A DNA stretch of 63,001 nucleotides, from the NCBI GenBank assembly GCA_964590575.1, contig CAZPWM010000005.1, forward strand, positions 1 to 63,001, given 5' to 3'. Positions 15,737 through 33,401 of this stretch are shown here, piece after piece. The translations under genes and the position numbers were made by a program. Each line of letters starts with the position of its first letter. The stretch's first letter is position 1. This DNA comes from an uncultured archaeon. GTDB lineage: Archaea; Asgardarchaeota; Thorarchaeia; Thorarchaeales; Thorarchaeaceae. The notes beneath the pieces are model-generated. The model made no database searches, was not told the DNA's origin, and saw nothing but the letters and a program-made list of their open reading frames with translations.

Positions 15737-15880
15737 TGGTAATAGGTCTCCGCGAGTGACTGACTCAACAGGTGCGGTGCAATGCTCCTTAAAATCTTTC
15801 CAGTTTATCAAAGAATAACTAATTGAAACCAGTATAGCCCATTTTATGTACAAGGTATGCCCCAGGAGCTTTGCTCGCTA

Positions 15881-15950: not shown

Positions 15951-17891
15951 ATGGTCCTGAAGCAAAAGCCAGAAAAGAAACTCGAAGAGATTTTTGGAGA
16001 CCGCCTAATTACACAGAAGCATGAACTGGTTCTTTTTGGACAGGACGTTGGGTCTCTTCCAAAACAGGTTGGTTGGCTCATGAATACAAAACCTGATGCC
16101 ATCGTACAGCCCATAGCTTCCGAGGAGATTCAAGCACTTTATGGTGTTGCGAGAGAATTCAAAGTACCGTTAGTACCTCGTGCTGCTGGGACATCGGGAT
16201 ATGGTGGTGCGATACCCCGAAAGGGTGGCGTAATTGTTGATATGCGCCGCATGGACAAGATACTCGAGGTTGACAGCGAGAATTTGACAGTCACGGTTGA
16301 GCCGGGGATTTCTTGGGCCAATCTTCAGTTCGAATTGAACAGAAAAGGATTGGACACTAGATGCTACCCTTCGTCAGGTCTTTCAGCCACGGTAGGCGGA
16401 TGGGTGGCTCAAGGTGGGGATGGCATAGGGTCTCTCAAGTATGGCAACATCAACAAGAATGTTATCAAACTCGAAGTCGTACTACCTGACGGAAAACTTG
16501 TCAAAACAAAAGACATTGATCTATTCTGCGATACAGAAGGAATTCTTGGAATTATAACCAAGATCACCCTCAAGATAAAACCACTCAATCCTATGAAGGT
16601 GATAGTTTCAAGCTTCGGAGAAAACTATCAGATGGTCCTAGCAATCGAGAAGATTCTCGAAGACGGTCCACTCCCATATACCATCAAGTTTGAGGAGTCA
16701 AAATACACCGACCTGAAGAAAGCAATCTGGGAGGGTGAAAAACCATTCCCAATTCCAGCTCATCACGGGTCTTTGATGGTGGTTTATGAAGGTGATGAGG
16801 AAGAGATAGAGGAAGGGATTAGAGTTGTCAAAGAAGTCACCGAAATGTATCGTGGAGTTGTCTATGGTGATGATGTTGCTGAGCATGAATGGCACGAGCG
16901 TTACTATCCAATGAAGATCAAGAAGAAAGGACCAACACTCGTCGTTGGTCAAGCCTTCGCTCCCCTAGAGAATCTTGCTGCTATACTTGATGATTTTCAG
17001 TTCGAGCAAGCATCAGCGAAAGCGGGCATTGATGGTTACGTTAACTCCAAGAGCGCGGTCACAATGATGGGCTACTTCCTAGAGGATGAACGAAGAATGT
17101 TCTACATGTTCTCATGGGCCCAGAGCTTTGTCATTTTTAAAATCGCGCAACGTCATGGAGGACACGTTCACTCAACTGGAATCTGGTTTGCAAATTACGC
17201 TTCGCAATACTTCGGAAAACAGAGACTTGCTCGAATAAGGGCTGCAAAGCTCACGTGGGATAGGCAGGAGATATCTAATCCCGGTAAAGTCTTTGCTTAT
17301 TGGTTGCCATTCATACTCAAAATCGGCAAGTACTTTCTTTGGATATTCTATGACCTATTCAGAAACGGGTTCGGTAGAATTGCTCCAATCCTTCTGAAAT
17401 GGCTTCAGAATGTACCACCACTAAAGTGGGTCTTAAGATGGGGTCGAGCTCACAGCCCATGGCCTATGCAGTATGGCATTGGCTGTTGCATGGTTGATGG
17501 TGCAGCAGGAATTGCACCCCGTTGGGACTTTGAGCGATTCGGAATGCTTCCACTCTTCGGTCCAAGACAGACTGATGTTCTATGGATCTCAGGTTCATTG
17601 ACCAAGAAGATGGCACCAAGACTCAGACGTATCTACGAACAGATGCCGGAACCTAAGTTCGTCATCGCATTCGGTCAATGCGTTGCCTCTGGAGGTCTCT
17701 TCTGGGAAGGATATTCCTTGGCGACTCCTCCAGACAAGATCGTGCCTGTGGACGTTTATTTGCCGGGATGCCCACCAAAGCCTGCTGACTTCATACGAGC
17801 GCATCTCATCCTACAAAACAAGATTCGTGCAGGTACAACTCACTGGCAACAGAAATACGAGAACCAAGATGCAATGGGGATGATGCAGTAA
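15951..17891 (+). CDS. nuoB: Fusion of an FAD-binding oxidoreductase (GlcD/D-lactate dehydrogenase-like, aa 1-~445) and complex I subunit NuoB (aa ~490-646)
   Basis: N-terminal PDAIVQP, PRAAGTSGYGG, VEPG, PSS..ATVGG, EGILGIITK, NPGK. C-terminal WGRAHSPWP, GCC, PRQTD, RRIYEQMPEPKFVIAFGQCVASGG, VDVYLPGCPP. Confidence 0.92.
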   Translation: MVLKQKPEKKLEEIFGDRLITQKHELVLFGQDVGSLPKQVGWLMNTKPDAIVQPIASEEIQALYGVAREFKVPLVPRAAGTSGYGGAIPRKGGVIVDMRRMDKILEVDSENLTVTVEPGISWANLQFELNRKGLDTRCYPSSGLSATVGGWVAQGGDGIGSLKYGNINKNVIKLEVVLPDGKLVKTKDIDLFCDTEGILGIITKITLKIKPLNPMKVIVSSFGENYQMVLAIEKILEDGPLPYTIKFEESKYTDLKKAIWEGEKPFPIPAHHGSLMVVYEGDEEEIEEGIRVVKEVTEMYRGVVYGDDVAEHEWHERYYPMKIKKKGPTLVVGQAFAPLENLAAILDDFQFEQASAKAGIDGYVNSKSAVTMMGYFLEDERRMFYMFSWAQSFVIFKIAQRHGGHVHSTGIWFANYASQYFGKQRLARIRAAKLTWDRQEISNPGKVFAYWLPFILKIGKYFLWIFYDLFRNGFGRIAPILLKWLQNVPPLKWVLRWGRAHSPWPMQYGIGCCMVDGAAGIAPRWDFERFGMLPLFGPRQTDVLWISGSLTKKMAPRLRRIYEQMPEPKFVIAFGQCVASGGLFWEGYSLATPPDKIVPVDVYLPGCPPKPADFIRAHLILQNKIRAGTTHWQQKYENQDAMGMMQ

Positions 17892-18451
17892 TGTCGCTCA
17901 GGCAAGATAGTGATCCATACTGCATGCTCTTTCTTGGCTTAGTCATACTTACAGCTTTTATCTTCAACTTTGTCTATCTTGGTTTCGTGGCTCCACCATC
18001 CGCGGCCTTGGCTGTCGCTGGTTCATTCACACTAATCGGAGGTATGTCCATTCTCTTAGTCTTCTTCTTAATCGGGTACTTCAGGCCTGAGAAAGGAAAA
18101 GGAAAGAATCTGATGATGGCACTCTCCGTTGTTGTAGGATTCTTCTTTGTTGTATTTGTTGACCAATTTGCTTTAGCAGTACCTATTGCAGGATCAACAA
18201 TGTATCTGTCATTTTGGGGTCTAGGAGGATCTATTCTCACAGCAGCTGGTTTTGCCATGATGCACAACCAAGAAGAAAGCTACTCACCGGGTATCTTAGA
18301 CACAAAATCTTTGCATTATGGTCCGGAACCTGAACCTGAGCCTGAAGCAGATACCCCGACTGAAACCGAGGCTGTAGAACTCACCGCTGAGGAAACTACT
18401 GTGGAAGATGAAACACCTAGTGAACCAGCTTCCGATGCTGGAAACGAGTAA
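17891..18451 (+). CDS. 4-TM membrane protein with acidic C-terminal tail
   Basis: TAATG stop/start overlap with the fusion gene; four hydrophobic segments; EPEPEPE acidic tail. Confidence 0.75.
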   Translation: MSLRQDSDPYCMLFLGLVILTAFIFNFVYLGFVAPPSAALAVAGSFTLIGGMSILLVFFLIGYFRPEKGKGKNLMMALSVVVGFFFVVFVDQFALAVPIAGSTMYLSFWGLGGSILTAAGFAMMHNQEESYSPGILDTKSLHYGPEPEPEPEADTPTETEAVELTAEETTVEDETPSEPASDAGNE

Positions 18452-18461
18452 GGTTGATTTC

Positions 18462-18827
18462 TCACTCGTAGAGCCAGTTGAACGCAGCAAATGCAATTAA
18501 GAGTCCAAATGCCATCCATGCAAATAGAATAATTCCCATGATAAGATCATACATGGTGAAGATTAGATATGCATGAATTCCACCTAGGATTCCAGTCATC
18601 ATAGTCAATGCAACTCTGCTGGAACGTGTTTTAGCTGCGGCGAATCCAAATGCCGTCGCTACAAGGAGCAGTCCACCTAAAACAAGTATCAAACGGAAGA
18701 GTATACTAACGACTAAAACTGTTGTATTCATGATATACCAAAAGTATGCTCCGACTAGAGCCATTCCAATTAACAGAGCAAGATAATAGAAGAATGTTCC
18801 TTCTTCGCCACGAGCCAAATGAATCAC
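18462..18827 (-). CDS. Small 4-TM membrane protein
   Basis: 121 aa, almost wholly hydrophobic; fills the gap between the fusion operon and nuoA. Confidence 0.7.
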   Translation of the reverse strand: MIHLARGEEGTFFYYLALLIGMALVGAYFWYIMNTTVLVVSILFRLILVLGGLLLVATAFGFAAAKTRSSRVALTMMTGILGGIHAYLIFTMYDLIMGIILFAWMAFGLLIAFAAFNWLYE

Positions 18828-19188: not shown

Positions 19189-19656
19189 ATGATGCAGAGT
19201 GAAAGATTGTTTATGGAATTCATCCCCGTTTTGATATGGGCTTTGTTAGCCATTGTCTTGGTTGTAGTGATGCTGCTTGCATCATGGGTACTGCGTCCTC
19301 ATGTGTTGCAGAACTCTGAGAAGACTTCGACATATGAGTGTGGGGAGGAACCCATCGGTCCTGCCAGGATATCATACCCCTACAACTACTTCATCTATAC
19401 TGTGCTATTTGTCGTGGTTGATGTATTAGGTGCCTTTCTCTGGCTTCTTACCTCATCAAATATACTGTGGGTTGATGCAACCAAATATGCTGTTGTTTGG
19501 CAAGTGACTGTCTTCATATTGATCATCATGGGGGGTGCTGGGTACGTTATGAAGATGCTCCCACAATCGTTCTTGGATGGCAAAGAAACCCTTGAGGTCT
19601 ATCGTTTGGCCAAAGCTGAGAGGGAACAAGAAAAGCATGTTGCAGGAGGTCATTGA
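19189..19656 (+). CDS. nuoA: Complex I subunit A
   Basis: KTSTYECGEEP, FVVVDV; three TMs. Confidence 0.92.
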   Translation: MMQSERLFMEFIPVLIWALLAIVLVVVMLLASWVLRPHVLQNSEKTSTYECGEEPIGPARISYPYNYFIYTVLFVVVDVLGAFLWLLTSSNILWVDATKYAVVWQVTVFILIIMGGAGYVMKMLPQSFLDGKETLEVYRLAKAEREQEKHVAGGH

Positions 19657-20303
19657 AGATGCAGGGTATCGAAGCAGTTTTTGAGTCGATTGAATTTTTC
19701 CTATTAGCAGGCATCGTACTGGTTTTAGCATATCTAGCATTGGAGCACAAAGAGATCGTCTATGCTGCATTCTTCTTTGGTTTCATGGCTTCTTTTGTGG
19801 CTGGATTCTTCCTATTGCTTGAAGCACCTTTCATAGCAGGGATGCAGATAGCAGTTTACACTGGAGGAATTAGTGCACTCATCATCTTTGGAGTATTATT
19901 ATTACCTAGAGCTCAAGATTCATCGCTTGAGACGTTTGCATCACCGCGAAAACGACAAGTTGGATTACTCATAGCCGCATTGGTCATAGCTCTTTCTGGG
20001 TTCCTAGCTTTCATTTTTCCATGGGCTGAATCATTTGACCAATCCTTCATTGAAATCTCAAACAACCTGAATGAACTTGCAATGTGGTTGTGGGCTGACA
20101 ATGGCATCTATGTTCAGATGATTGCTCTAATCATGGTGACTTCTTTAGTCGGAGCGATTGCGCTTCTGAAGATGGACAAGGCTGAACAACTAGCGTCCAT
20201 ACATGGAGAGTTTGGTGTTGAAGCGAAGCCTGAAATCGAAGAACCGGATTCAGTGGTGGAAGAGGAACAACCTGAAGGAGAACCGGAGGAGGTCGATGGA
20301 TAA
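19653..20303 (+). CDS. nuoJ: Complex I subunit J
   Basis: LEAPFIAGMQIAVYTGGI; five TMs; acidic tail. Confidence 0.88.
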   Translation: MKMQGIEAVFESIEFFLLAGIVLVLAYLALEHKEIVYAAFFFGFMASFVAGFFLLLEAPFIAGMQIAVYTGGISALIIFGVLLLPRAQDSSLETFASPRKRQVGLLIAALVIALSGFLAFIFPWAESFDQSFIEISNNLNELAMWLWADNGIYVQMIALIMVTSLVGAIALLKMDKAEQLASIHGEFGVEAKPEIEEPDSVVEEEQPEGEPEEVDG

Positions 20304-20614
20304 TGGTTCCGCTCTCATGGTATCTTATTCTTGCCTTTATGCTGATAGGCTTAGGTAGCTATGGGATGATGGTCAAGAGGAACCTCATCCGAATTCTTAT
20401 AGGCGCTGAAATCATGGGGAACGGGGTTAACATCGCTCTTGTAGCCCTTTCACTCTATAGTCCCGCCTTTACATTCACCGGTCAAGGACTGATTATCCTC
20501 GTCATCTCAGTTGCAGCAGCTCATACTGCCTTGGCTCTAGTTTTGATGCTTATGTACAACCGACGTTATGATTCAGTTGACCTTGGACAACCGATCGAAA
20601 TGGAGGCACCATAA
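20303..20614 (+). CDS. nuoK: Complex I subunit K
   Basis: KRNLIRILIGAEIM, VAAAHTAL; three TMs. Confidence 0.9.
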   Translation: MVPLSWYLILAFMLIGLGSYGMMVKRNLIRILIGAEIMGNGVNIALVALSLYSPAFTFTGQGLIILVISVAAAHTALALVLMLMYNRRYDSVDLGQPIEMEAP

Positions 20615-20615
20615 G

Positions 20616-21119
20616 ATGTCTACAATCGGAAGAGCGGTTATCAACAAGATACCCGAGGTGACATCGAATCCCCTAGGTGATAACAAGATTGAGCTTGTTG
20701 TTCCCAAAGACAAGATTCGAGATGTTGTCAGGATAATAGATGAGGAACTCCCAGATGCGATGCCGGAGTCAGTTTTTGGAATAGACCTCGAGAATGATCA
20801 ATACGAGCTCATCTACATCTTCTGGTCATATACTAATCGTACATTGGTCCAACTCCGAGTTTCCCTCGCTGGCGAAACTCCTGAAATTGAGAGTACATGC
20901 GATATCTTCCCTGGTCTGGAATGGCATGAGAGAGAGGCCCGAGAGATGTTTGGCATCGAGTTCAAGAATCATCCTGATCCACGACTCTTCCTACTGCCCG
21001 ATGAGTTGGATGGAGCATACCCACTCCGCAAGAGATTCCAGACTGACCAAAGCAGATTGAATGAAACTGGTATCACTCCGCCAAAACCACGACCCAAAGA
21101 GGGAGGTGAAGACAAGTGA
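20616..21119 (+). CDS. nuoC: Complex I subunit C
   Basis: WHEREAREMFGIEFKNHPDPRLFLLP...YPLRK. ATG 20616 directly follows the nuoK stop (track 20568). Confidence 0.92.
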   Translation: MSTIGRAVINKIPEVTSNPLGDNKIELVVPKDKIRDVVRIIDEELPDAMPESVFGIDLENDQYELIYIFWSYTNRTLVQLRVSLAGETPEIESTCDIFPGLEWHEREAREMFGIEFKNHPDPRLFLLPDELDGAYPLRKRFQTDQSRLNETGITPPKPRPKEGGEDK

Positions 21120-22252
21120 GTCCCGACATTCTTGATGAAGCAATGGAGATCTGGTTTGGCCCTCAACACGTTTCTGCTCATGGTTGGGCAACCAAATTGA
21201 CATTGGTCGGTGACTATGTGGTTGAGTGTGACCCAAATGCAGGTTACTTCCACCGCTCCGCTGAGAAAGTCCTTGAGTACAAGAACTTTAGACAGGGTGC
21301 ACTTGTATTAGAAAGAATGTGTATGCTTGAGGCATTCTTAGCTGAGTACCCCTATGTTGCAGCGGTGGAGAAAATTGCAGAACTCGAGGTGCCAGAACGC
21401 GCAAAGGTCATGCGAACCATCATGATGGAGATGTCCCGTCTTCACAGCATTCAGTTCTGGTGGGGTCAGTTCAACGCAGAGCTTGGATTTTTCACAATGG
21501 CTCTCTGGCCCTGGGTTGACCGAGAATACTCACTTGATGCCTTTGAAGAGCTAACAGGGTCACGACACACTGTTTCATACTCTACTCCAGGTGGTGTGAA
21601 ATACGATTTCACCGAGAAGTTCATGAAACAACTTAACCGTGCCATCGATCGCTTTGAGGATAGACTGCCCAAATTCAGGGATATGCAAATGGGTAGTCCC
21701 ACTTTTAGAGCAAGAACCGAGAATATCGGCCTATACGATGTCAAACAGGGTCTCAAATGGGGATTGAGTGGTCCCCCTATCAAAGCCTGCGGTGTCCCAA
21801 TGGACCTGAGAAAGGATGACCCCGATTCAAACCTTGCGTACGACATGGTGGACTGGGAAGTGCCCATAACAGAGAATCGTGAACATCCGGGTCAGAGCGA
21901 CGCCCTTGATAGGATGGAGCAACGATTTGCGGAAGCTGAAACTGCTTGTGAGATTATCAAACAGCTGATACCTCAGATTCCAGAAGGACCGATAATTGAT
22001 CCTAAGGCTCGCGCCAAAGCAAATAGACTTCCTGAAGGGGAAGCATACGCCAGAGTGGAGGGCACACGAGGTATCACAACACTGTGGCTCAAGACTCAAG
22101 ACAAAGCGCAGACCGCGTATCGAGCAAAGATACGTGGACCTTGTATCGCCTCATACTATGCATTGAAGGACTTAGTGCCTGGCTCGAAGTTTGCAGACTT
22201 CATTGTAATATTTGGAAGCTTAGATCCATATCCAGGGTGGTGGGATCGCTGA
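21116..22252 (+). CDS. nuoD: Complex I subunit D (no NiFe site)
   Basis: GPQHVSAHG, GYFHRSAEK, ELTGSR, EGTRG, YRAKIRGP; C-terminal SLDPYPGWWDR lacks CxxC. Confidence 0.92.
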   Translation: MSPDILDEAMEIWFGPQHVSAHGWATKLTLVGDYVVECDPNAGYFHRSAEKVLEYKNFRQGALVLERMCMLEAFLAEYPYVAAVEKIAELEVPERAKVMRTIMMEMSRLHSIQFWWGQFNAELGFFTMALWPWVDREYSLDAFEELTGSRHTVSYSTPGGVKYDFTEKFMKQLNRAIDRFEDRLPKFRDMQMGSPTFRARTENIGLYDVKQGLKWGLSGPPIKACGVPMDLRKDDPDSNLAYDMVDWEVPITENREHPGQSDALDRMEQRFAEAETACEIIKQLIPQIPEGPIIDPKARAKANRLPEGEAYARVEGTRGITTLWLKTQDKAQTAYRAKIRGPCIASYYALKDLVPGSKFADFIVIFGSLDPYPGWWDR

Positions 22253-22263
22253 TGGGAGGTGTC

Positions 22264-23403
22264 ATGTTGCAATTCGACTTCTTTGCATGGCTTGCTGGGA
22301 TTCCAACCTGGCTTGAAAGCGTGCTTTTCTGGATATGGGGTATAGTCAAAGGCATCATCCTGTGGATCTGGGACGTTATTGTATGGGTTTGGGGACTTGT
22401 ATTTGCTCCTGACAACTTCATGTTTCTCTTCCGTGCTGTCCTGTTCCCCGGTCTGATATTCGTGGTTCTAACTCTGATTTGGGCCGTTTGGTTCACTAGA
22501 AAATTATGGGCTAGAATCCAAGATAGACGTGGTCCTGTACATATGGGTAAGTATGGTGGACTCCAATTGTTTGCTGACGCGATCAAACTAATCGCAAAGG
22601 AAACTATCATTCCTGACAAAGCGAAGAGATGGATGTTTAGGTTCCTACCAGGATTTCTCCTCATCATGGTACTCTTGCCATTCTGCTTCATACCTTGGGA
22701 TTTTGATTATTGGTTCATTGCAGACCTTTCAGTTAGTCTAGTACTGGTCTTCGCCTTTCTCACTGCAGTTCCTGTTATTGCTCTATTGGCTGGTTGGGTC
22801 AGTGGTTCAAAGTACTCACTCATTGGTGGATTTAGGGCGGCCAACAATCAGTTTGCAGCTGAGATTCCTATGATTATCTCAACAATCGGACCTGCTCTGC
22901 TGGCAGGTTCTCTGAGTCTCATGGGCATAGCACAAGCGCAGACTAATGTCTGGTTTGCAATATTGTTGCCAATCAACCTAGCAACTTTCCTAGTTGCAGC
23001 AATTGCATCTGTGGGTATATTTCCATTCGATGCTCCTGTTGCAGACTCTGAGATCATCTTCGGATGGAGAACAGAGTTCACAGGCATCCACTTCACACTC
23101 ACGTATTTTGCAGAGTTTGCAGAACAGATGTTATACTCCGCACTCATAGTTGCCCTGTTCTTAGGAGGACCGATTGGGTTCCCATTCCTACCGGGTGCAG
23201 TGAACTTCATCATCAAGTTCCTGATAACGTTCTTCTTCTTTGTACTTGTGAGTTCATCATTCCAAAGACTCAGACAAGACCAGATTGTCCACTACTGCTG
23301 GAAATATCTACTACCACTTGCGCTCTTGAATGTCATAATCGCAATGTTCGCGATAGTCTACCTTCCTGGACTGGCAGCATTATTCCCCTTAGGAGGCGGT
23401 TAA
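22264..23403 (+). CDS. nuoH: Complex I subunit H
   Basis: RKLWARIQDRRGP, LQLFADAIKLIAKE, SKYSLIGGFRA, PFD, RLRQDQ..CWKYLLP. ATG 22264 follows GGAGGT (alternative 22252). Confidence 0.93.
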   Translation: MLQFDFFAWLAGIPTWLESVLFWIWGIVKGIILWIWDVIVWVWGLVFAPDNFMFLFRAVLFPGLIFVVLTLIWAVWFTRKLWARIQDRRGPVHMGKYGGLQLFADAIKLIAKETIIPDKAKRWMFRFLPGFLLIMVLLPFCFIPWDFDYWFIADLSVSLVLVFAFLTAVPVIALLAGWVSGSKYSLIGGFRAANNQFAAEIPMIISTIGPALLAGSLSLMGIAQAQTNVWFAILLPINLATFLVAAIASVGIFPFDAPVADSEIIFGWRTEFTGIHFTLTYFAEFAEQMLYSALIVALFLGGPIGFPFLPGAVNFIIKFLITFFFFVLVSSSFQRLRQDQIVHYCWKYLLPLALLNVIIAMFAIVYLPGLAALFPLGGG

Positions 23404-23406
23404 ACG

Positions 23407-23838
23407 ATGGGTTTCTTCAGTGTATTAGGTGATTGCTTCCAGATTTTGAAACATACATTCAGACAGGTCTTCAAGAGACCCTTCACATACTTCTTCCCAT
23501 TCGAAGATAGAATCTATCCTGAAAGGACAAGGGGTAGACATATTCATGTGCGTCAGAATTGTACAGCCTGTGCACAGTGTGTCCGCGCATGTCCAGTGGT
23601 AGCGATCCGTATGGACAAGGAAGATAAGATGTACGAGAAAGACTGTGCTCTGACCTTTGACTACACACGCTGTATCTTCTGTGGTCTATGTGTTGAGGCT
23701 TGTAGATTCGAAGCTCTATTCCACACTCCTGTTGTTGACCTGAGTGAAGGTGACCGGGAAGACCTCATCTACGGTCCTGACAAAATTGAAACCCTTGATA
23801 GAGACCCGTTAAAGTGGCGCGGAAGGAGGTTCCGTTAG
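23407..23838 (+). CDS. nuoI: Complex I subunit I (2x[4Fe-4S])
   Basis: PERTRGRH, CTACAQCVRACP, CIFCGLCVEAC. Confidence 0.93.
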   Translation: MGFFSVLGDCFQILKHTFRQVFKRPFTYFFPFEDRIYPERTRGRHIHVRQNCTACAQCVRACPVVAIRMDKEDKMYEKDCALTFDYTRCIFCGLCVEACRFEALFHTPVVDLSEGDREDLIYGPDKIETLDRDPLKWRGRRFR

Positions 23839-25371
23839 ATGCAGATCACAAACCTCCCGTTTGCTGCCCTATCATTAGCAGTGCTCTTCTTTGGAGCACT
23901 CATGATCTATGTGTTCAAAGACAGTCTTCAGAAATCTGCAGGAAGAGTTGCAGTTGGAATTTCAGGTGTAGCGTCCCTATTGATGGTCTATCCTTTCTTT
24001 CAAGTATTCAACGGGTCTACATACGAAGAGTATGCGACCTGGTCCAGCCTTCTCGAGCAATTCGGTCTAAGGCTTGATGGAATTGCCTTTCCAATCACAT
24101 TTGCAGTTGTCGTGTTAGGTTTTCTATCAGTTGTTTACGCTATTGGTTATACAGAGCATAGTGAGAATAAACCAACCTTCTTCGCTAACACACTCTTCTT
24201 CCTAATGGGAATGCAATGGGTTACCTTAGCAACGAACCTGATCGAATTTTTCATAGCTTGGGAGCTCATGTTGGTTCCCGCTTATTTCCTGATTCTATTC
24301 TGGGGACTACCTGATACTCGAAAGCGAACAGCTATGAAGTTCTGGCTCTACACTCAATCTGGTGCAGTCTGTATCTTGGTTGGCTTTGGAATTCTATATT
24401 CCCTTACAGGGTCATTCGACTTAGCCTTAATTCAACCCGGGATTGACTCACTTGCTCTCGGCGCAATACTACCCGGTCTTGGTATCACTGTTGGCACGAT
24501 ATTAAAATTAGTCTTCATTCTCCTTGCCGCAGGATTCCTTGTGAAGATGGCTGTCTTCCCCATTCATTGGTGGCTCCCACCGGTTCATGCTGAGGCTCCT
24601 ACTCCTATCTCTGTCTTGCTTTCAGGTGCAATGATTGAGACCGGTGCCTACGCGTTGGTGCGGTTTGGATCTCTTACCTTGATAGATGCTGCAATTCAAC
24701 TATCGTTCTTTGTTGCAGCCTTGGGAGTCATCACCATGTTTTATGGTGGTTTCATGGCTCTTGCACAGATTGACATCAAGAGGCTCCTTGCATATTCATC
24801 GGTATCTCAGATGGGATACGTACTGTTTGCCTTGGGTGTGTACTCACCCATGGGTGCTGCAGGTGGAATGTTCCATTTGATCAATCATGCTTTCTCAAAG
24901 GGTCTGTTGTTTATGACCGCAGGTGCTGTGATCCATCAGACTGGCCTACGTGACATAACTAAGATGGGCGGTCTCTCGAACAAGATGCCAATCACAGCTT
25001 TTGCTGCTGCTATTGGAATGATGAGCATTGCAGGAAGTCCTCCTCTCTCTGGATTCGCAAGTGAGTGGATGATGTTCCTCGGAGGGTTCGAGCGAGCGGT
25101 CGTAGGTGGTGCAATAGCAAGTCTACCATTCCTTATTCTAACTATCATAGCAGCATCAAGTTCAATTCTCAGCGCAGGTTATATGATGCGCTTTTTCTGG
25201 AAGGTCTTCCTTGGCCCTCATCCAGATGAGTTGGAAGATGTGAAAGAGAGTTCCAACTCTATGACCATCCCTATGATCATACTTGGAATCCTCATTGTAA
25301 TCTTTGGAATATTCCCAGGACTGGCACTGGATGTCATTGTCCCGGCGGTTCAAGGAATCGTTGCTCCCTGA
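23839..25371 (+). CDS. Additional antiporter-like subunit (NuoM/HyfB/MrpD-like)
   Basis: FFIAWELM, VKMAVFPIHWWLPPVHAEAPT, KRLLAYSS, NHAFSKGLLF, GFASEW. Confidence 0.88.
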   Translation: MQITNLPFAALSLAVLFFGALMIYVFKDSLQKSAGRVAVGISGVASLLMVYPFFQVFNGSTYEEYATWSSLLEQFGLRLDGIAFPITFAVVVLGFLSVVYAIGYTEHSENKPTFFANTLFFLMGMQWVTLATNLIEFFIAWELMLVPAYFLILFWGLPDTRKRTAMKFWLYTQSGAVCILVGFGILYSLTGSFDLALIQPGIDSLALGAILPGLGITVGTILKLVFILLAAGFLVKMAVFPIHWWLPPVHAEAPTPISVLLSGAMIETGAYALVRFGSLTLIDAAIQLSFFVAALGVITMFYGGFMALAQIDIKRLLAYSSVSQMGYVLFALGVYSPMGAAGGMFHLINHAFSKGLLFMTAGAVIHQTGLRDITKMGGLSNKMPITAFAAAIGMMSIAGSPPLSGFASEWMMFLGGFERAVVGGAIASLPFLILTIIAASSSILSAGYMMRFFWKVFLGPHPDELEDVKESSNSMTIPMIILGILIVIFGIFPGLALDVIVPAVQGIVAP

Positions 25372-25381
25372 GGTGATTTAG

Positions 25382-27637
25382 ATGCTGTTCGGTCTACCTT
25401 ACTATCTAATCCTCGTCATCCCCTTGGCTGGTTCACTGCTAGTCCCAGTTGTTGGACGCTACAGTGAGAAGCTCAGGGACTGGACACCTGCAATCTTCAT
25501 GGGCATCGCTATGGTCCTCTGTTGGTCTCTTCTCCTAGAGATTGATCATGCCACTCAGCCTACTAGCTGGGTATGGATAGAGGCACTAGGAATAGAGTTC
25601 AGTGTTCTACTTGACCCACTGTCTGTCATAATGGCTGTTCTAGCAAGCACACTTTGTTTCCTCATCTATGTATACAGCACGGAATACATTGCTGATGATG
25701 AAGACCGCAATCGGTTCTTCTTCCTGATGCTCGCTTTTGGTGGTGGCATGCTTACACTCGTGTTGAGCAACAACTTGTTAATCGGGTTTATTGGATGGGA
25801 AATCATGGGCTTCTGCTCCTATGGCCTCATTGGCTTCTGGAACGACAAGAGGAATCCTCCTGAGGAGGACCCAACTGGCTATGAGCAGAACAATCCATTG
25901 CTCCAGTTCGAGACCGAAGGCGCATACAACAGCTACTGTGGAACAAAAGCCTTCATCGTCACACGGATTGGTGACGCCTTCATGCTGGGTGGCATCCTTC
26001 TCCTCTTCATGTTCACGGGCTCCTTCCTGTTCACAGACATGGCTGATCCTGTACATTTGTCGAACAACTGGTGGGAGAACATGGCATCCGTAGGGATTCT
26101 GATTCCTGCACTGCTCCTCATCTTCATGGGTGCCATCGGAAAATCCGGTCAAGCTCCCCTACAGGTGTGGCTTCCTGAAGCCATGGCAGGTCCGACTCCG
26201 GTTTCGGCTTTGATTCACGCTGCAACCATGGTGAAGGCAGGTGTTTACATCACCGCCCGATTCTTAATCACAATAGTAAGTGCGTCAGGCATCCACGCAG
26301 AGATTGGACCAGGTCCTCCAAGCTTCACATCAGCTCAAATCTTTGGCTTTGAGGCTGCGCTGACCTTCTTCATCATCGTGGCTATTATTGGTGGAATTAC
26401 TGCTATTATGACTGCAACAATGGGAATGGTTTCCAATGAGTTGAAACAGATTCTAGCATTCTCGACGCTGTCGCAGCTTGGATACATGATTCTAGCACTG
26501 GGAGTTGGAGGAGTTCTCCAAGCAAATCACCTTCACTATGACCAGGCGTATCTGAGTGGTGTCTTACACGTTGTATCACATGGAGCCTTCAAAGCACTCC
26601 TGTTTCTTGCCTCCGGTGGTGTGATACATGCACTGCATACGAAGTACATCTCAAAGATGGGCGGACTCCGGAAACATATGCGGAAGACGTTCATTGTCAT
26701 GTGGATAGGCGTCTTGGCCTTAGCAGGCATCCCACCCTTCTCAGGCTTCTGGTCAAAAGACTCAATCATTGAGTACACCTATGAACTTGCTGCACACTGG
26801 ACAAATCCAATTGGATGGATTCTATTCATCTTTGCAATTCTAGCAGCAGCCTGCACCATATTCTACAGCTTCAGATTGATGGGCATCACATTCTATGGAC
26901 CCCCACAGGGTGAATCTCATGACTCTCATGAAACTCACGAGGATGAAACTGAGTCTCACGCTGAGGAAGAACATCACGATGACCATCATCAGACACCACA
27001 CGATCCTGGTCCAGCTATGATGGTGCCGCTCTACATACTCGCTGCATTCACGGTCATTGCTTTTGCTGTGTTTCCAATCCTTCAGAACATTGTACTGAAT
27101 GAGAGCAATACATGGATAGAGACCATGACTGAAATGATCGTGGTCAAACTCACTATGCCTGGACTTGTTCCCTTCGTTATCACTTTGGGCGCTCTGGCTA
27201 TTGGTGGGATTCCGGGTTACATCATTTACATCAAGAATTCTAACAAACCAAACACAATCATTGGTGAGAAAGGCTTCAGTCGCAAGATCTACACTTTCCT
27301 CAGACACAGGTGGTACATCAACGAAGGATATCATTGGATTCTTGGAAAATTCCTCAACTTTGCTGCCATGTGGCGAGTCCGAGTGGATGACAAAATCATT
27401 GATGGCATTGACTTCAAGTCTGCTGATGCAGCGATAACCATCTCCACAAAGGTTCGCTGGTTTGATGACAATGTTGTCGATGGGTTTGCTGAGAGCATCT
27501 CAACCCAGAGTGTCAAAGCCTCAGAAACCAGCTTAGCTGAGACGCAGACAGGACGAATCAATGACTACGTTAGCGTGGTGATATTCGGTATAGGAATACT
27601 GGTTATCCTCGCACTGGTTTCATTGGGAGTGATATAG
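25382..27637 (+). CDS. nuoL: Complex I subunit L
   Basis: GWEIMG..SYGLIGFW, KAFIVTRIGD, KSGQAPLQVWLPEAMAGPTPVSALIHAATMVKAGVY, HGAFKALLFL, GFWSKD; lateral helix ending QTGRINDY. Confidence 0.95.
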   Translation: MLFGLPYYLILVIPLAGSLLVPVVGRYSEKLRDWTPAIFMGIAMVLCWSLLLEIDHATQPTSWVWIEALGIEFSVLLDPLSVIMAVLASTLCFLIYVYSTEYIADDEDRNRFFFLMLAFGGGMLTLVLSNNLLIGFIGWEIMGFCSYGLIGFWNDKRNPPEEDPTGYEQNNPLLQFETEGAYNSYCGTKAFIVTRIGDAFMLGGILLLFMFTGSFLFTDMADPVHLSNNWWENMASVGILIPALLLIFMGAIGKSGQAPLQVWLPEAMAGPTPVSALIHAATMVKAGVYITARFLITIVSASGIHAEIGPGPPSFTSAQIFGFEAALTFFIIVAIIGGITAIMTATMGMVSNELKQILAFSTLSQLGYMILALGVGGVLQANHLHYDQAYLSGVLHVVSHGAFKALLFLASGGVIHALHTKYISKMGGLRKHMRKTFIVMWIGVLALAGIPPFSGFWSKDSIIEYTYELAAHWTNPIGWILFIFAILAAACTIFYSFRLMGITFYGPPQGESHDSHETHEDETESHAEEEHHDDHHQTPHDPGPAMMVPLYILAAFTVIAFAVFPILQNIVLNESNTWIETMTEMIVVKLTMPGLVPFVITLGALAIGGIPGYIIYIKNSNKPNTIIGEKGFSRKIYTFLRHRWYINEGYHWILGKFLNFAAMWRVRVDDKIIDGIDFKSADAAITISTKVRWFDDNVVDGFAESISTQSVKASETSLAETQTGRINDYVSVVIFGIGILVILALVSLGVI

Positions 27638-27638
27638 A

Positions 27639-29243
27639 ATGCAATTAGACTTCGCCTTAAACATCCTGAACTCATTACCCTTTGGACCGCTAGGGTTCAT
27701 GCTGATCTTACCACTAGCTGCTGCATTAATAGCATACTTTGCAGGAAAAGGAGCCAGAGCTATAACACTACTAGTCACTGCTGTTGAACTTGGACTATCA
27801 CTCCTGTTGGTTCTAGCGGTTGACACAAGTGAGATTCTTGCTACAGACTCAGTTGCTGGTATGCAGTTTGTCGAATACTTTGTTATGGGAACGATTCCTG
27901 TTGGAGCCACTGATACAGTGTTCCAGTTTATCCTTGGAGTTGACGGACTCTCTGCAATAATGCTTCTACTCTCGAACCTCGTTGTGTTCATTGCAGCAAT
28001 CAGCTCAAACCACATTCACAAGTCTGAAGGTTTCTACTACTCACTCTTCATGCTTCTACAGGTAGGTCTCATGGGCGTGTTCATGTCCATGGATTTGATC
28101 GGATTTTTCATTTTCTGGGAACTGGTTCTCATCCCGATGTTCTTCATCATCGGAAGATGGGGCGAGGAGGGCTGTCAGCATGCGGCTGTGAAGTTCTTTA
28201 TCTATACCCATCTTGGCTCAGCAGTGATGCTGGTCGCATTCTTCATGATGTACCTCATCGCGGGAGATGCAACTGGCACATATACGTTCGCTATGATTGG
28301 CGCTGATGGACTGAGAAGCACTCTTCCAACACTTGCTCCAATGATTCAGATTGGTTTTGCACTAGCCATATTCATGGGTGCCGGAGTCAAGCTACCTGTC
28401 TGGCCGCTACACAACTGGCTTCCATGGGCGCACGTCAAAGCTCCCACGCCTGGTTCAGTCATACTTGCTGGCATCCTTCTGAAGATGGGCGGTTACACAT
28501 TTATCCGTCTTGGGCTCTGGTTGGTGCCAAGTGCATTTGCACGATTGAGCATCCCGTTTGCAGCATTAGCCATCTTCACCTGTATTTATGCTGCATTCAC
28601 AGCAATGGCTCAGACAGATTTGAAGAGCCTCGTCGCATATACCTCAATCAATCACATGTCCTGGGTACTTCTTGGTGTAGCTGTAGCAGCATTTGGTATT
28701 GGTCTCGATCCACTTGTCGCAGCTAATGTGGCTTACATCAATGCAGCAAACTTGGCACTTCAAGGAGCGATATTCATGATGTTCAGTCATGGAACTATCA
28801 TCTCTGTGATGTTTATCATGGCTGGTCAACTCAAGTACTCAGCTGGCACGCGTGAGATTCCTGATATTAAAGGTCTCATGACTAAAGCGCCGCGTCTCTC
28901 AGCAATCTTGATACTTGCCGCCTTTGCGGCCTTTGGTCTGCCGGGATTCAGCGGCTTCATAGCAGAAGCACTGGTCATCTTTGGGTCCGTTGTAATCTAC
29001 CTCTGGGCTGCAATCATCACATTTGGAATATTCATAACAGTGGGCTATGTCCTATGGATGTTGAACCGAATTGTGTTCAGCGACCCTGACCCCGAGAAGG
29101 AAGTTTCAGAGGCACCTTGGACTGACCTCATCGCACCTATTCTGATGATGATACCAGTCATCCTCTTGGGTATATGGCCTGACCTTGTCCTTAACTTCAC
29201 ACAAGCAGTCGTCACTTTCATCATTGGAGGTGTTGCACCATGA
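27639..29243 (+). CDS. nuoM: Complex I subunit M
   Basis: GVDGLS, FWELVLIPM, KFFIYT, VKLPVWPLHNWLPWAHVKAPT, LAGILLKMGGY, SHG, GFIAE. Confidence 0.94.
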   Translation: MQLDFALNILNSLPFGPLGFMLILPLAAALIAYFAGKGARAITLLVTAVELGLSLLLVLAVDTSEILATDSVAGMQFVEYFVMGTIPVGATDTVFQFILGVDGLSAIMLLLSNLVVFIAAISSNHIHKSEGFYYSLFMLLQVGLMGVFMSMDLIGFFIFWELVLIPMFFIIGRWGEEGCQHAAVKFFIYTHLGSAVMLVAFFMMYLIAGDATGTYTFAMIGADGLRSTLPTLAPMIQIGFALAIFMGAGVKLPVWPLHNWLPWAHVKAPTPGSVILAGILLKMGGYTFIRLGLWLVPSAFARLSIPFAALAIFTCIYAAFTAMAQTDLKSLVAYTSINHMSWVLLGVAVAAFGIGLDPLVAANVAYINAANLALQGAIFMMFSHGTIISVMFIMAGQLKYSAGTREIPDIKGLMTKAPRLSAILILAAFAAFGLPGFSGFIAEALVIFGSVVIYLWAAIITFGIFITVGYVLWMLNRIVFSDPDPEKEVSEAPWTDLIAPILMMIPVILLGIWPDLVLNFTQAVVTFIIGGVAP

Positions 29244-30778
29244 TGCTACAACTAGACCTTATTGCAGATTCAATCCGTGGGATTCTTTCCCCTATTACCA
29301 ATTGGTTACTGACAATCATACCCGCAGGGTGGATCATGTCATTGCCTGCTCTAACATTGATTGTCTTCGCTATATTGGCACTTGCAGTAGGTCTCAAGTA
29401 CAACCCACTTGGTCTAAGCTTTATCGGTCTCATAATTGCTGGTCTTGAGATGTTGATGTTTGAACCCGCAGTTCTTGGGGCAGAATCTTTCGGAGGTCAG
29501 TTTGTAAGAGACCCTATGGCTGACTTCTTCATCTACATCATTCTCATAGTCGGCTTTCTAGTCTTGATGTCTTCTACTCTATATGGCGGGGATAAAGGTC
29601 CATACAACTTCCTGCTGCTAATTTCCTTTTCAGGAGCAATCTGGGTTGTAATGGCGACCGACTTGGTTGGACTGTTCTTGGCTTGGGAGATGATGTCAAC
29701 ACCGACATACATACTTGTTGCCCTTGGCCCTGCCCGAGAGGCAATTGATGGTGCAACGAAGTACTTCGTCATGGGCCTTCTTGCTACTATGTTGATGTTG
29801 TTTGGAATTGCCCTTGTATACGGTGTTACTGGAACAACTGACCTTGTCCTCGTGGCATCTGCAGTAGAGGGCATCTGGGGTATGTTCGCTACAACTCCAA
29901 ACGCTGCCTATACAATCCTTCTAGCTTTGGTGTTATTCATTGTTTCATTCGGATTTAAGGTAGGTGTGTTCCCTGGATGGCAATGGGTGCCAGATGCATA
30001 TGCCAGTGCAGATGGAAGCGTCACTGCATATCTTGCAGGCGGATCCAAGAAGACAGGTGTGGGTGCTCTTATGAGAATCCTCGTCATTGGGTTCGTAGTA
30101 GCTCAGACTCAATGGGTGTTTCTCATCGTTGGAGTCGCAATCCTCACCATGATTATTGGAAATGTTCTAGCTCTCGCACAGAAGGATATCATGAGGATGT
30201 TGGCATATAGTAGCATTGCTATGATGGGCTATCTCTTCATTGGAATTGCCTCTGCCATGAATCCCGTCGATACTGCAAGTATTGCTGCATATAATCTGGG
30301 CGTTGGTGCAGCACTTTTCCATGCTTTCACACACGCATTGATGAAGACATCTGCATTCATTCTGGTGTGGGCGCTTTCAATCAAGCTCGCAAAACGGATA
30401 ACGTACGATGATCTAGCTGGGCTAAGCAAACGTGCACCCTTTGCTGCGGGTATGCTGACTATTCTAATGCTATCATTAGCTGGTATGCCACTCACGGTTG
30501 GGTTCTGGTCAAAACTGATTCTCTTCCAGAGTGCAGTCGTTGCTGGAATGTGGTGGCTCGCACTCATAGGTCTCTTGAACTCGGTGTTTTCACTCGGTTA
30601 CTATTTGCGTGTGTTAAGATACTCCTACATGATGGATGCTCCAGATGATTCAAGAATCAAACTGCCAACTATTCCCTTTGTTGCAGTTACAATCTGTGTC
30701 ATCGCAGTGATTGCCCTCTTCCTCTTTCCAAATATTATACTAGACTATGCATTCGCAGCTGTACCCGCAGTACCATAG
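29240..30778 (+). CDS. nuoN: Complex I subunit N
   Basis: WEMMS, KYFVMG, FKVGVFP..WVPDAY, SKK, RMLAYSSI, LAGMPLTVGFWSK, YYLRV. Confidence 0.93.
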   Translation: MMLQLDLIADSIRGILSPITNWLLTIIPAGWIMSLPALTLIVFAILALAVGLKYNPLGLSFIGLIIAGLEMLMFEPAVLGAESFGGQFVRDPMADFFIYIILIVGFLVLMSSTLYGGDKGPYNFLLLISFSGAIWVVMATDLVGLFLAWEMMSTPTYILVALGPAREAIDGATKYFVMGLLATMLMLFGIALVYGVTGTTDLVLVASAVEGIWGMFATTPNAAYTILLALVLFIVSFGFKVGVFPGWQWVPDAYASADGSVTAYLAGGSKKTGVGALMRILVIGFVVAQTQWVFLIVGVAILTMIIGNVLALAQKDIMRMLAYSSIAMMGYLFIGIASAMNPVDTASIAAYNLGVGAALFHAFTHALMKTSAFILVWALSIKLAKRITYDDLAGLSKRAPFAAGMLTILMLSLAGMPLTVGFWSKLILFQSAVVAGMWWLALIGLLNSVFSLGYYLRVLRYSYMMDAPDDSRIKLPTIPFVAVTICVIAVIALFLFPNIILDYAFAAVPAVP

Positions 30779-30803: not shown

Positions 30804-31361
30804 CTATTTCTTACGGCTAAGTCGTCCTTCTTCTTTTTTAATAGCAGTTTCTACACACTTGGTGAACATCTCTTCGATATTCTCTCCTGTTTTTGCAGAG
30901 GTCTCAATGTAGTCTATATTTAGCCATCGACTGACCATTTCCCCTGCCTCCTGAGGGACTACACGATCCTCCCTATCCACCTTGTTTGCAACCAGAATAA
31001 TAACTGCATCGGGAGAGACCTTTATGAAATTGTCATACCATGAAGCCACGTTCAGAAAAGTCGGAGGTCTAGTCACGTCATACACAAGAAATGCAATTGA
31101 TGCCCCTACCATGTATCTTGAACGAAGGTCTTTGTAGGTGGGTTGTCCTGCTAGATCCCAGAGAACAACTTGTGCTATCGAATGTTCGCCCGGTCGAAGC
31201 TCAATCTCGACGTTCTTCAGAGCTATGCTTGTACCAATTGTTGCCTTATACGTTTCTCCGTAACTGTTCTGAGTGTACCGCATGATGCAGCTTGTTTTAC
31301 CTACGGCCCCATCACCAAGTGCTACCATTTTAAGCACATATCTGGGACCTTCTTCTTCCAC
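30804..31361 (-). CDS. Rab-like small GTPase (Ras superfamily)
   Basis: G1 GDGAVGKT, G2 YKATIG, G3 WDLAGQ, G4 NKVD, G5 ETSAK; no terminal Cys. Confidence 0.93.
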   Translation of the reverse strand: MEEEGPRYVLKMVALGDGAVGKTSCIMRYTQNSYGETYKATIGTSIALKNVEIELRPGEHSIAQVVLWDLAGQPTYKDLRSRYMVGASIAFLVYDVTRPPTFLNVASWYDNFIKVSPDAVIILVANKVDREDRVVPQEAGEMVSRWLNIDYIETSAKTGENIEEMFTKCVETAIKKEEGRLSRKK

Positions 31362-31442: not shown

Positions 31443-33401
31443 CTAGCAGCCGTTGGGCAGTTTCAGAACAAATCGCGTACCCTTGGTGAAATCTCCTTCT
31501 ACACGATTCTCAACCCAAATATCACCTGAGTATATGTCAACAATCTGCTTGACCAAAGTGAGCCCTACTCCAGAGACCCTATGGACCCTGTCATCAATTC
31601 CTGTAAGGAGGCTTTTCTTTAGTCGGTCATCGATTCCTTGGCCCCAGTCTTCAAAATCAAACTGTATGAATGCCCCCTCCTCTACAAGGCTAGTGTTGAC
31701 ATTTACACGTATATCATCACTACTAGAGAATTTCACAGCATTATGAAGTAGATTGTAAAAAACGTCTTGCAGGAATTCATTGGACATTATGCAATATACT
31801 CCACTTTCCAAGTTTGTTGTAATTGTGATTTTTCTATGAGGAAATGATTGCTTAACAGTCTGGATAGCATCTATCAATGCATTTGCGGGGTCAGTCTTTT
31901 TAAGTGCAAATTTCTTCTGATTCACCACTGAGAACTTCTTCACATTGTGAATGAGAGACACGCTTCGATTGACCTGAAATAGCGCATTCTGCGCTATTTC
32001 TTTAAGATGCTCAGGAAAATTCTCATCCTCAAGTAGCAACTCAAGGCTCGACATTATTCCTTGGTGAAGATTATTGATATCGTGTGCCATCAAATCTGAC
32101 ATCCAAATCGCACGAGCTCTAGCTTCTTCACGTTGTTTCTCAGCTTCCACCTGCTCAGTGATATCAATGGAGAATCCCCCAATCAAAGGTGAACTCCCTT
32201 CTTTGATAATGGGAAACTTGTGAGTTCGAAATGTCCGTTGCTTTCCATCCTGAATTGTTTCCTGTATTCTGTCAACTGGACCTTCTTTCAATACTCTCTT
32301 GTCTTCTTCCGTCAACTCTGTCGCGCGCTCACTCTCGAAAAGATCAAAATTTGTTAGACCCTCCCAATTTTCACGATTCTGCTCTGGTGCCTGGCCACGC
32401 ATGCATCTATTTACGAATAGCACTTTTGATGTTTCATCCTTGATGTATACTGGACCTGGCATATTATCAGCAAATGCTGTGAAGCGTTCTTGGAACTCCT
32501 GAAGTTCTTGTTGAGTTCTTCTACGTTCTAGAACAGTGGCGAACATGCTTGCGATTGTTGCAAAGACAGTCCTCTGATCTTCTTGAAGTTGTTTTGATTT
32601 CTTGGCTGCAATGTTTATCACACCGAGAAGGTTATCCTTTGAACCTATGATTGGCCAGAATATAAGAGTATGAATACCTAACTCTCTTGCCCTCTTCATT
32701 CTGTCCTTACTTTCAGGTGATTTGTCTATGTCTTCAGTGAAAAGTGGCGACATTGTTCGACCAGTCCTTGCAACGAGGAAATTGGGATCATCAAGGTGAA
32801 CACCCTCTGGTGTGCCTCCCTTCTCAATCCCGACAAACGCCATCAAATCGAGTGAGTTTGTTGAGGAATTATATAATCGGATTGTACCAAGGTCGAATCC
32901 AAGTGTTTCGATAAGTCCAGAGAGTACTTGATTACACAAGGATGGAATCTCCTCAGTGCTAATTGCAGCCTCTGCTATGACGCTGTATGCGTGTCGTTCA
33001 GTAGCAAGTGTTTCTTTGGAAAGTTCATCGCTTGTGACATCGATAGAGTAGGCAATTACATACTTTTCATTTTCGACCACTATTGAATTGGCTGTCACCT
33101 CAAGAAAACGTCTTTCGCTTTTTGCATTAATGAATTGATAACGTGCTTGATCTTTTTCTCTCCTTCCAGAGCTAAGTGCTAACAATCTAGTTAGAGCTAA
33201 CTCTTGATCGTCGGGACCTAGGACCGTCGCTATATTAGCTACTTTTTTGCCGACAACTTGTTCCGGTTCGAATCCCAATCCAGCGGCCATTATTGGGTTA
33301 ATATACACTATCTTCTCATCATGAATGACAATAACTCCCTGTGGTGAGGAATCAAATAGTGTATGCAGAAGCGTATCTCGAGAACCTTCCAATTGAGTCA
33401 C
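31443..33401 (-). CDS. Soluble PAS-GAF-PAS sensor histidine kinase
   Basis: PAS (IVYINP..DVT), GAF (LLGVINI), PAS (DIT), H-box AHDINN, N-box NLLHNAVKF, DWGQGI, SGVGL. Confidence 0.9.
   Translation of the reverse strand: MTQLEGSRDTLLHTLFDSSPQGVIVIHDEKIVYINPIMAAGLGFEPEQVVGKKVANIATVLGPDDQELALTRLLALSSGRREKDQARYQFINAKSERRFLEVTANSIVVENEKYVIAYSIDVTSDELSKETLATERHAYSVIAEAAISTEEIPSLCNQVLSGLIETLGFDLGTIRLYNSSTNSLDLMAFVGIEKGGTPEGVHLDDPNFLVARTGRTMSPLFTEDIDKSPESKDRMKRARELGIHTLIFWPIIGSKDNLLGVINIAAKKSKQLQEDQRTVFATIASMFATVLERRRTQQELQEFQERFTAFADNMPGPVYIKDETSKVLFVNRCMRGQAPEQNRENWEGLTNFDLFESERATELTEEDKRVLKEGPVDRIQETIQDGKQRTFRTHKFPIIKEGSSPLIGGFSIDITEQVEAEKQREEARARAIWMSDLMAHDINNLHQGIMSSLELLLEDENFPEHLKEIAQNALFQVNRSVSLIHNVKKFSVVNQKKFALKKTDPANALIDAIQTVKQSFPHRKITITTNLESGVYCIMSNEFLQDVFYNLLHNAVKFSSSDDIRVNVNTSLVEEGAFIQFDFEDWGQGIDDRLKKSLLTGIDDRVHRVSGVGLTLVKQIVDIYSGDIWVENRVEGDFTKGTRFVLKLPNGC

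Follow-up and report, generated by a model that had tools for sequence, protein, structure and literature searches.

The 2M variant of complex I was reportedly described by Chadwick, Hemp, Fischer and Orphan in 2018 (ISME J 12:2668). It is the described system closest to the gene cluster reported here, a nuo operon with four antiporter-like (pump) genes on a stretch of 63,001 nucleotides (nt) of Thorarchaeota DNA (hereafter the window; contig CAZPWM010000005.1, our contig C5, of a genome of 3.4 Mb and 91% completeness). According to the available sections of the published work, a second NuoM and a 26-residue insertion in the lateral helix (HL) define 2M complex I, and the insertion is tied to a fourth pump (PMC9040806, PMC6606698). 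An original prediction made from the letters of the window alone had likewise named such insertions as the way in which 2M variants accommodate their fourth pump. The insertion of 26 amino acids (aa) occurs in NuoL of the Nitrospira 2M complex I and in MrpD2 of the five-pump Manganitrophaceae enzyme (PMC9040806), and heterotrophic marine Thaumarchaea have a 2M form that belongs to "clade 2" (PMC7300363). In many cases 2M complex I has no NADH module, and a fifth translocated ion has been proposed for it (PMC9040806, PMC6606698, PMC7300363). For Asgard archaea, the available sections of PMC11291895 and of bioRxiv 10.1101/2024.07.04.601786 describe complexes with three or fewer pumps and do not mention a four-pump form. 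No description of a Thorarchaeota nuo cluster was found in our literature search, and PMC6737245 mentions neither Nuo nor NADH dehydrogenase, complex I or quinone.

When analyzing the window, we found both of the features by which 2M complex I is recognised: two NuoM-type subunits encoded in one nuo cluster, and a NuoL whose lateral helix is about 26 residues longer. We consider it likely that the operon encodes a 2M-class enzyme of Thorarchaeota. This Nuo-type complex has 11 subunits and no NuoEFG head, and its arm would hold NuoL, an M-type subunit here named X, NuoM and NuoN, with an HL that is one module longer. The operon is a clear further example of a design already known from other microbes.

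The operon lies on the forward strand at 19189-30778 and has the order nuoA-J-K-C-D-H-I-X-L-M-N. Its genes are tightly packed: nuoI and X abut, X and nuoL are 10 nt apart, nuoL and nuoM are 1 nt apart, and nuoM and nuoN overlap by 4 nt. A Pfam search confirmed that all four antiporter-family genes located by the original prediction match PF00361, and these four are the only PF00361 genes in the 91%-complete genome. The pump genes and the two HL modules discussed below are as follows.

23839-25371, forward strand: X, the first M-type antiporter-like subunit, of the archaeal M type, 510 aa (PF00361, 233 bits)
25382-27637, forward strand: nuoL, 751 aa, with the longer lateral helix HL (PF00662 and PF00361; TIGR01974)
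27368-27445, forward strand: HL module 1, NuoL residues 663-688, carrying DDKIIDG at 27386
27446-27523, forward strand: HL module 2, NuoL residues 689-714, carrying DDNVVDG at 27464
27639-29243, forward strand: nuoM, the second M-type subunit, canonical, 534 aa (TIGR01972; NuoM clade)
29240-30778, forward strand: nuoN, 512 aa (PF00361; NuoN clade; best PDB match 8e9g_N)

To assign the four subunits, they were scored against family models and placed in two quick maximum-likelihood trees (76 and 65 rows, with Shimodaira-Hasegawa-like approximate likelihood ratio test (SH-aLRT) values as the only support and no Nitrospira or Chloroflexi 2M sequences among the rows). NuoL passes TIGR01974 with 459 bits (cut-off 407.5). 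NuoM reaches 400 bits against TIGR01972 (cut-off 263.8) and falls in the NuoM clade with 100 SH-aLRT, grouping with bacterial NuoM. NuoN scores 272 bits against TIGR01770, under the cut-off of 332.6, and its NuoN clade has support of 100/99 SH-aLRT. X scores 306 bits against the NuoM model TIGR01972, again above the cut-off of 263.8, and falls together with NuoM inside an M-type superclade (99 SH-aLRT). Within this superclade, a canonical NuoM clade (100) comprises the proteins of E. coli, S. meliloti and Rubrobacter and the M of all archaeal X-L-M-N operons. The Thorarchaeota X clusters with the X of an Asgard family (G025, family f18) and of Heimdallarchaeum aukensis (96), and the X of Bathyarchaeota, "Acidiferrales" and Promethearchaeota clusters with the single M of ammonia oxidisers (95). 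At transmembrane helix (TM) 12, X and NuoM have Glu, while NuoL and NuoN have Lys. The fourth gene had been called M-like, and the model score, the superclade and the TM12 Glu all agree with this.

X is 31% identical to NuoM of the operon and 29% identical to both NuoN and NuoL. A recent copy of the operon NuoM was ruled out as the source of X, since the identity of 31% to NuoM compares with 41-51% to the X-type subunits of other lineages. The best solved-structure and plasmid matches of X are MbsH', MrpA and MbhH; an MrpA/MbhH-like identity, considered on account of these matches, was ruled out by the placement of X in the M-type superclade. By sequence, X is an M-type subunit, and the enzyme would thus have two M subunits that are old and of different affinity. 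Four charged residues of X, E142 (TM5 Glu), K236 (TM7 Lys), K354 (TM11 Lys) and E409 (TM12 Glu), are invariant in 14 X-type sequences; for the reference positions we assumed the E. coli numbering, and the residues there were confirmed on E. coli sequences. X therefore keeps the charged residues of what would be a working pump module.

Within NuoL, the first residue of the motif DDKIIDG is 669 (nt 27386) and that of DDNVVDG is 695 (nt 27464), a spacing of 26 residues or exactly 78 nt. This doubling had been seen in the original prediction, which described the motif as normally single, and a single copy is indeed what we found in the two solved NuoL/NdhF chains that align here, NdhF1 (6hum_F) and Paracoccus NuoL (8qby_L). 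Both motifs at 26-residue spacing were present in 115 of 120 NuoL homologues (63-100% identical), which are labelled Candidatus Thorarchaeota by their sources and are kin of each other, so that the count speaks for conservation and not for independent recurrence. Among the five misses, P0041, P0111 and P0113 are full-length with one match to the regular expression, and P0116 and P0120 are C-terminally truncated. When the HL of the window was matched with itself, the best ungapped match covered 22 residues at offset 26 and scored 26 (shuffle mean 10.6, z = 2.9), a score reached in 14 of 1000 shuffles. The self-repeat of the window HL is by itself suggestive but not strong, giving modest support for one old, diverged repeat. 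Other long-HL lineages have clear 27-residue tandem repeats (z = 4.6-9.3, reached in 0 of 1000 shuffles).

Three lines of evidence agree that the helix is longer. First, 6hum_F and 8qby_L align with the window NuoL without gaps up to the first motif, after which 44-49 residues remain in the solved chains versus 76 here; after the second motif 50 residues remain in the window NuoL. The PDB search with the C-terminal 221 residues stopped at the first motif, and the gap itself comes from our own alignment. Second, between the conserved RWYxN anchor and the C-terminus, 6 of 6 four-pump loci first examined (five Thorarchaeota genomes and the Asgard family G025) have 108-109 residues. The three-pump loci in which the anchor could be located have 77-83, except for L050, which has 94 because of a tail after TM16. 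Third, a direct MAFFT alignment of the C-termini contains a single 26-27-column block that is filled in 8 of 8 NuoLs of X-L-M-N (four-pump) operons, namely those of the window, two other Thorarchaeota, G025, Heimdallarchaeum aukensis, two Bathyarchaeota and an "Acidiferrales" contig whose sequence stops after M. In 10 of 11 NuoLs of three-pump clusters these columns hold no residues; the sequences named there are the second Thorarchaeota type, three Asgard, Baldr, Odin, a Nitrososphaeria, three ammonia oxidisers and E. coli. In the window the block corresponds to residues 691-717 (27452-27532), a boundary that is not fixable in a tandem repeat. Thus the C-terminal alignment proposed with the original prediction returned a net helix insertion and not an unchanged helix, and the 26-residue lengthening claimed there holds: relative to three-pump complexes, the lateral helix of NuoL is about 26-27 residues longer in net terms.

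The same lengthening was seen in a broader sample. Using an X-type alignment as query, a gene-order scan with one genome per species returned 80 named loci. For all 81 NuoL open reading frames (ORFs) of more than 550 aa in the loci of this work, we determined how far the QTG motif that precedes TM16 lies from the anchor (12 ORFs not measurable). This distance was 50-54 residues in 37 three-antiporter loci, 77-79 in 17 four-antiporter loci (72 in three of these, where the regular expression matched early) and 106 in 2 four-antiporter Promethearchaeota loci. An AlphaFold2 (AF2) model built from a 44-sequence alignment, with a mean predicted local distance difference test (pLDDT) score of 72, has a continuous helix at residues 644-715 across both modules and TM16 at 724-747.

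Next to the long HL stands the fourth pump gene. X lies directly before L in 14 of 14 Thorarchaeota loci with the long NuoL type (L033-L037, L058-L066), five of which end at a contig edge after X-L or X-L-M, and also in the Asgard family G025; among the loci searched, no homologue with the same NuoL was found without the extra gene. Long HLs with three or fewer nearby pump genes occur in nine loci, and four of these (L058, L065, L083, L108) are cut at a contig end or have a partial N. Across lineages, the number of HL modules co-varies with the number of pump genes. In two Promethearchaeota contigs (L099, L111), a NuoL of 766 aa has three HL modules, with an anchor-to-QTG distance of 106 compared with 79 and 53 elsewhere and a repeat at offset 27 (z = 4.6), in a cluster with four pump genes; the L099 genome has an additional lone gene for a 631-aa antiporter-like protein on a separate contig, and these two loci may encode a five-pump enzyme. 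In some other Thorarchaeota genomes (L038-L043) there is a second cluster, K-L-X'-X'', whose NuoL has about 670 aa and a short HL; this cluster is the sole one in a few genera and was not found in the genome of the window.

Based on these data, the following arrangement is proposed. The membrane arm would hold four antiporter-like subunits, NuoL, the two M-type subunits X and NuoM, and NuoN. HL normally connects TM15 with the TM16 anchor and on the way crosses M and N; in the window it has one additional 26-residue module, which probably came from an old tandem duplication of the unit carrying D-x-x-(I/V)-(I/V)-D-G. At 1.5 Å per residue, 26 residues make about 39 Å of alpha-helix, which we take to be about the width of one antiporter-like subunit. 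X would accordingly lie under HL between NuoL and NuoN, and the complex would translocate an additional ion per two electrons relative to complexes with three pumps.

Several observations weigh against this arrangement. At TM8, X has a Glu (residue 267, 24637-24639), as does the X-type consensus, where NuoM, NuoL and NuoN of the operon have Lys. Five uncut loci have a long HL and three or fewer adjacent pump genes (L051, L070, L079, L088, L092); a whole-genome search of four of the five revealed more pump genes elsewhere, with totals of 4 in G061, 4 in G301, 3 and two fragments in G302, and 5 in G303. The Rubrobacter NuoL, from a three-pump cluster, aligns into the 26-27-column block, ambiguously, with a compensating 17-column gap upstream. 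Over HL the AF2 model has little confidence, with pLDDT values of 38-55 at residues 670-730. According to the available sections of PMC9040806, similar HL insertions occur in NuoL of otherwise canonical three-pump Manganitrophaceae clusters; because of these, a long HL does not always go with a fourth subunit, and a strict one-to-one rule is weakened.

Compared with 2M complex I as presented in the available sections of the literature, the window locus has the same second NuoM-type subunit in the cluster and the same HL insertion of about 26 residues in NuoL. It differs in lineage (Thorarchaeota), in a NuoB that is fused to a flavoprotein, and in its two M-type subunits, which belong to different groups, X with the archaeal M-types and NuoM with bacterial NuoM. 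The Asgard group-4 [NiFe]-hydrogenase complexes (PMC11291895; bioRxiv 10.1101/2024.07.04.601786) have an L of the same Asgard NuoL clade with a full HL, and the subunit encoded beside this L is the nearest relative of X outside four-pump operons (41-44% identity); unlike the window enzyme, they have three pumps, an HL of the short kind (78-83 residues after the anchor) and a large subunit with ERICGICS. The eleven-subunit Nuo of ammonia-oxidising archaea (A-B-C-D-H-I-J-K-M-L-N) likewise has an X-type M gene before nuoL and no NuoEFG, but it has a short HL and a stand-alone NuoB, with three pump genes genome-wide in the three genomes checked. The Thorarchaeota operon runs parallel to those of Bathyarchaeota and has a design in common with G025 and Heimdallarchaeum aukensis.

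The position of the extra gene before nuoL had been taken in the original prediction as a sign of independent origin. This argument did not survive the gene-order scan. The order (K or I)-X-L-M-N was found in Thorarchaeota, in at least nine Bathyarchaeota contigs, in Heimdallarchaeum aukensis, in two Promethearchaeota contigs and in one "Acidiferrales bacterium" contig, and ammonia oxidisers have K-X-L-N, so an M-type gene before nuoL is the ordinary archaeal layout. Since X-L-M-N is common to many archaeal four-pump operons, gene order gives no argument for independent origin. Relative to three-pump archaeal relatives, the added gene is the canonical-type NuoM after nuoL, and X may not be the "extra" one. 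The subunit tree upheld X as M-type; of the prediction as a whole, the fourth M-like pump gene, the longer HL and the fit to 2M stand, and the argument on origin does not.

A separate origin of the four-pump design in the Thorarchaeota lineage nevertheless has other evidence to speak for it, although we regard it as doubtful. When most of the HL region was left out of the NuoL tree, proteins with a long HL appeared in at least five places and the HL state needs at least 6 changes; a single long-HL clade is rejected by the approximately unbiased (AU) test (p = 3.7e-28, for a group named after the tree was seen), and the Thorarchaeota and Bathyarchaeota groups are separate in both the L tree and the X tree. 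On these sequences, the helix lengthening itself arose several times. Against a separate origin of the whole design, the long Thorarchaeota NuoL forms one clade with those of G025 and Heimdallarchaeum aukensis (95 SH-aLRT), with which it has X-L-M-N in common, so that the design predates Thorarchaeota; X-L-M-N is common to all archaeal four-pump operons seen; and the second M subunits of the Thorarchaeota and Bathyarchaeota groups form one clade beside bacterial NuoM (94 SH-aLRT). The X, L and M of the contig labelled Candidatus Acidiferrales bacterium (L083) are nearly identical to Bathyarchaeota ones, with very short branches; either they were recently transferred to a bacterium, or an archaeal contig was binned wrongly.

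A placement of X distal to NuoL, at the outer end of the arm and with the HL insertion serving another contact, is improbable. Such a placement is brought to mind by the rhizobial "green" complex I of S. meliloti pSymA (L056; J-K-MrpD1-(84 aa)-MrpD2-NuoM-NuoN), which also has four pumps and has its extra pump gene where X is, immediately upstream of the subunit that bears HL, with M and N coming after. In that complex two MrpD-like proteins replace NuoL, and the available sections of PMC9040806 report an MrpD2 without HL insertion despite the four pumps, which also speaks for a distal position. Against it, HL is longer in the window, and module number follows pump gene number across lineages. 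The window L passes the NuoL model and falls in the NuoL clade (99 SH-aLRT), and X is apart from both MrpD1 and MrpD2 in the tree, its nearest relatives being M-position subunits of archaeal complexes. That X and NuoM are alternative M subunits of two three-pump isoforms (L-X-N or L-M-N), never present together, is very improbable: both are M-type and ammonia oxidisers use the X-type as their only M, but here the two genes are in one operon among abutting neighbours, the long HL is strictly tied to both genes (6 of 6 loci first examined, and all uncut Thorarchaeota and Bathyarchaeota loci), and in an arm with three pumps this HL would be too long by one module.

The likely four-pump assignment, with X and NuoM together in the arm under a longer HL, would extend the 2M design to Thorarchaeota and their Asgard kin. 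For Asgard bioenergetics, it would add a Thorarchaeota pump with a higher predicted ion/electron ratio than the shortened Heimdallarchaeia complexes. Across the broad archaeal sample, changes in helix length go with changes in pump number, which suggests a rule of one 26-27-residue helix module per extra pump subunit, gained by tandem duplication. The understanding of how complex I works is unchanged by these results.

The remaining genes of the operon, together with the gene that carries the nearest NuoB domain, are as follows.

15951-17891, forward strand: NuoB domain (residues ~493-630) behind a GlcD-like flavin adenine dinucleotide (FAD) oxidase, 646 residues in all (PF01565, PF02913 and PF01058)
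19189-19656, forward strand: nuoA (PF00507)
19653-20303, forward strand: nuoJ (PF00499)
20303-20614, forward strand: nuoK (PF00420)
20568-21119, forward strand: nuoC (PF00329)
21116-22252, forward strand: nuoD (PF00346), the sole NuoD locus of the genome, without CxxC nickel-iron motifs
22084-23403, forward strand: nuoH (PF00146), coordinates of the longest ORF; given relatives of 385-391 aa, the true start is probably about 150 nt further in
23407-23838, forward strand: nuoI (PF00037/PF12838), with two 4Fe-4S motifs

In an alignment with E. coli NuoCD, NuoD has ERMCMLEA where hydrogenase-type relatives have ERICGICS, and the C-terminal motif is likewise absent. Since NuoD has lost the nickel-iron cysteine motifs that the related Asgard hydrogenase-type complexes keep, the enzyme is Nuo-type and not a hydrogenase; the large subunit has no CxxC nickel-iron ligands such as mark membrane-bound [NiFe] hydrogenases of group 4. 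It is no F420H2 dehydrogenase (Fpo) either, with 309 bits against the FpoL model (cut-off 1050) and 250 bits against the FpoD model (cut-off 600). At the position of the quinone-site tyrosine (E. coli NuoCD Y273) NuoD has Met, and other archaeal Nuo-type complexes have Met, Phe, Ile or Leu; the equivalent of His224 is kept. The missing tyrosine was considered as an argument against quinone use and dropped, because ammonia oxidisers lack it too.

No nuoB was found inside the operon, and a scan of neighbouring ORFs gave no NuoE, F or G domain. The closest NuoB copy is the fusion listed above, in which the first 450 residues form the GlcD-like FAD oxidase and the NuoB models pass their cut-offs; the genome has 4 Oxidored_q6 matches but one NuoD locus. 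The fusion is present in 13 Thorarchaeota loci, those named being L033, L034, L037, L058, L059 and L062-L066, where it is whole, and L035, where it is split; it was not found adjoining the operon in L036 or G025. A literature search on GlcD plus NuoB gave unrelated papers only. Back to back with the fusion gene lies a gene for an HdrD/GlcF-like iron-sulfur protein (14510-15853, reverse strand), and beside it are genes for a MenA-type prenyltransferase, which passes the TIGR00751 cut-off (13102-14184, forward strand), and a prenyl diphosphate synthase (11961-13025, reverse strand).

Among the families searched in the 91%-complete genome, no MqnA, MenD, haem-copper oxidase or cytochrome bd was found, and no MenB above the cut-off. 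With neither a terminal oxidase nor a quinone head-group pathway among these families, there is no visible high-potential chain to feed the reverse electron transport that the original prediction had suggested, and neither direction of flow is demonstrated by the gene content. We are inclined to assume that the enzyme runs forward and takes electrons from ferredoxin through NuoI, a mode that has been proposed for other complexes without the head. A bolder and quite tentative proposal would take HL as a modular ruler of 26-27-residue units, added by repeated independent tandem duplication in archaea, with the number of units predicting the number of pumps; the Thorarchaeota four-pump arm, joined to a flavoenzyme-fused NuoB with an HdrD-like partner, might then couple, reversibly and at a high ratio, ferredoxin, a membrane carrier made by MenA and a redox couple of the 2-hydroxyacid or disulfide type.

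Apart from HL, two further insertions were noticed in NuoL, an extra loop of about 30 residues after TM5 compared with solved NuoLs (residues 153-187, 25838-25942) and a His/Asp/Glu-rich insertion before TM15 (residues 508-542, 26903-27007) that is disordered in the AF2 model (pLDDT < 50). Both are present in the Thorarchaeota consensus. Between the NuoB fusion and nuoA, there are two small hydrophobic ORFs of 186 aa (17891-18451, forward strand) and 121 aa (18462-18827, reverse strand), which have no Pfam or NCBIfam family and whose position is conserved in Thorarchaeota loci; they may be accessory membrane subunits. On the 3' side of nuoN and on the opposite strand are genes for a Ras-family small GTPase (30804-31361, reverse strand) and a PAS-GAF-PAS histidine kinase (31443-33401, reverse strand). 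The GTPase recurs at the nuoN side in L033, L034, L037, L060, L064 and L066, and the kinase in L033, L037 and L060.

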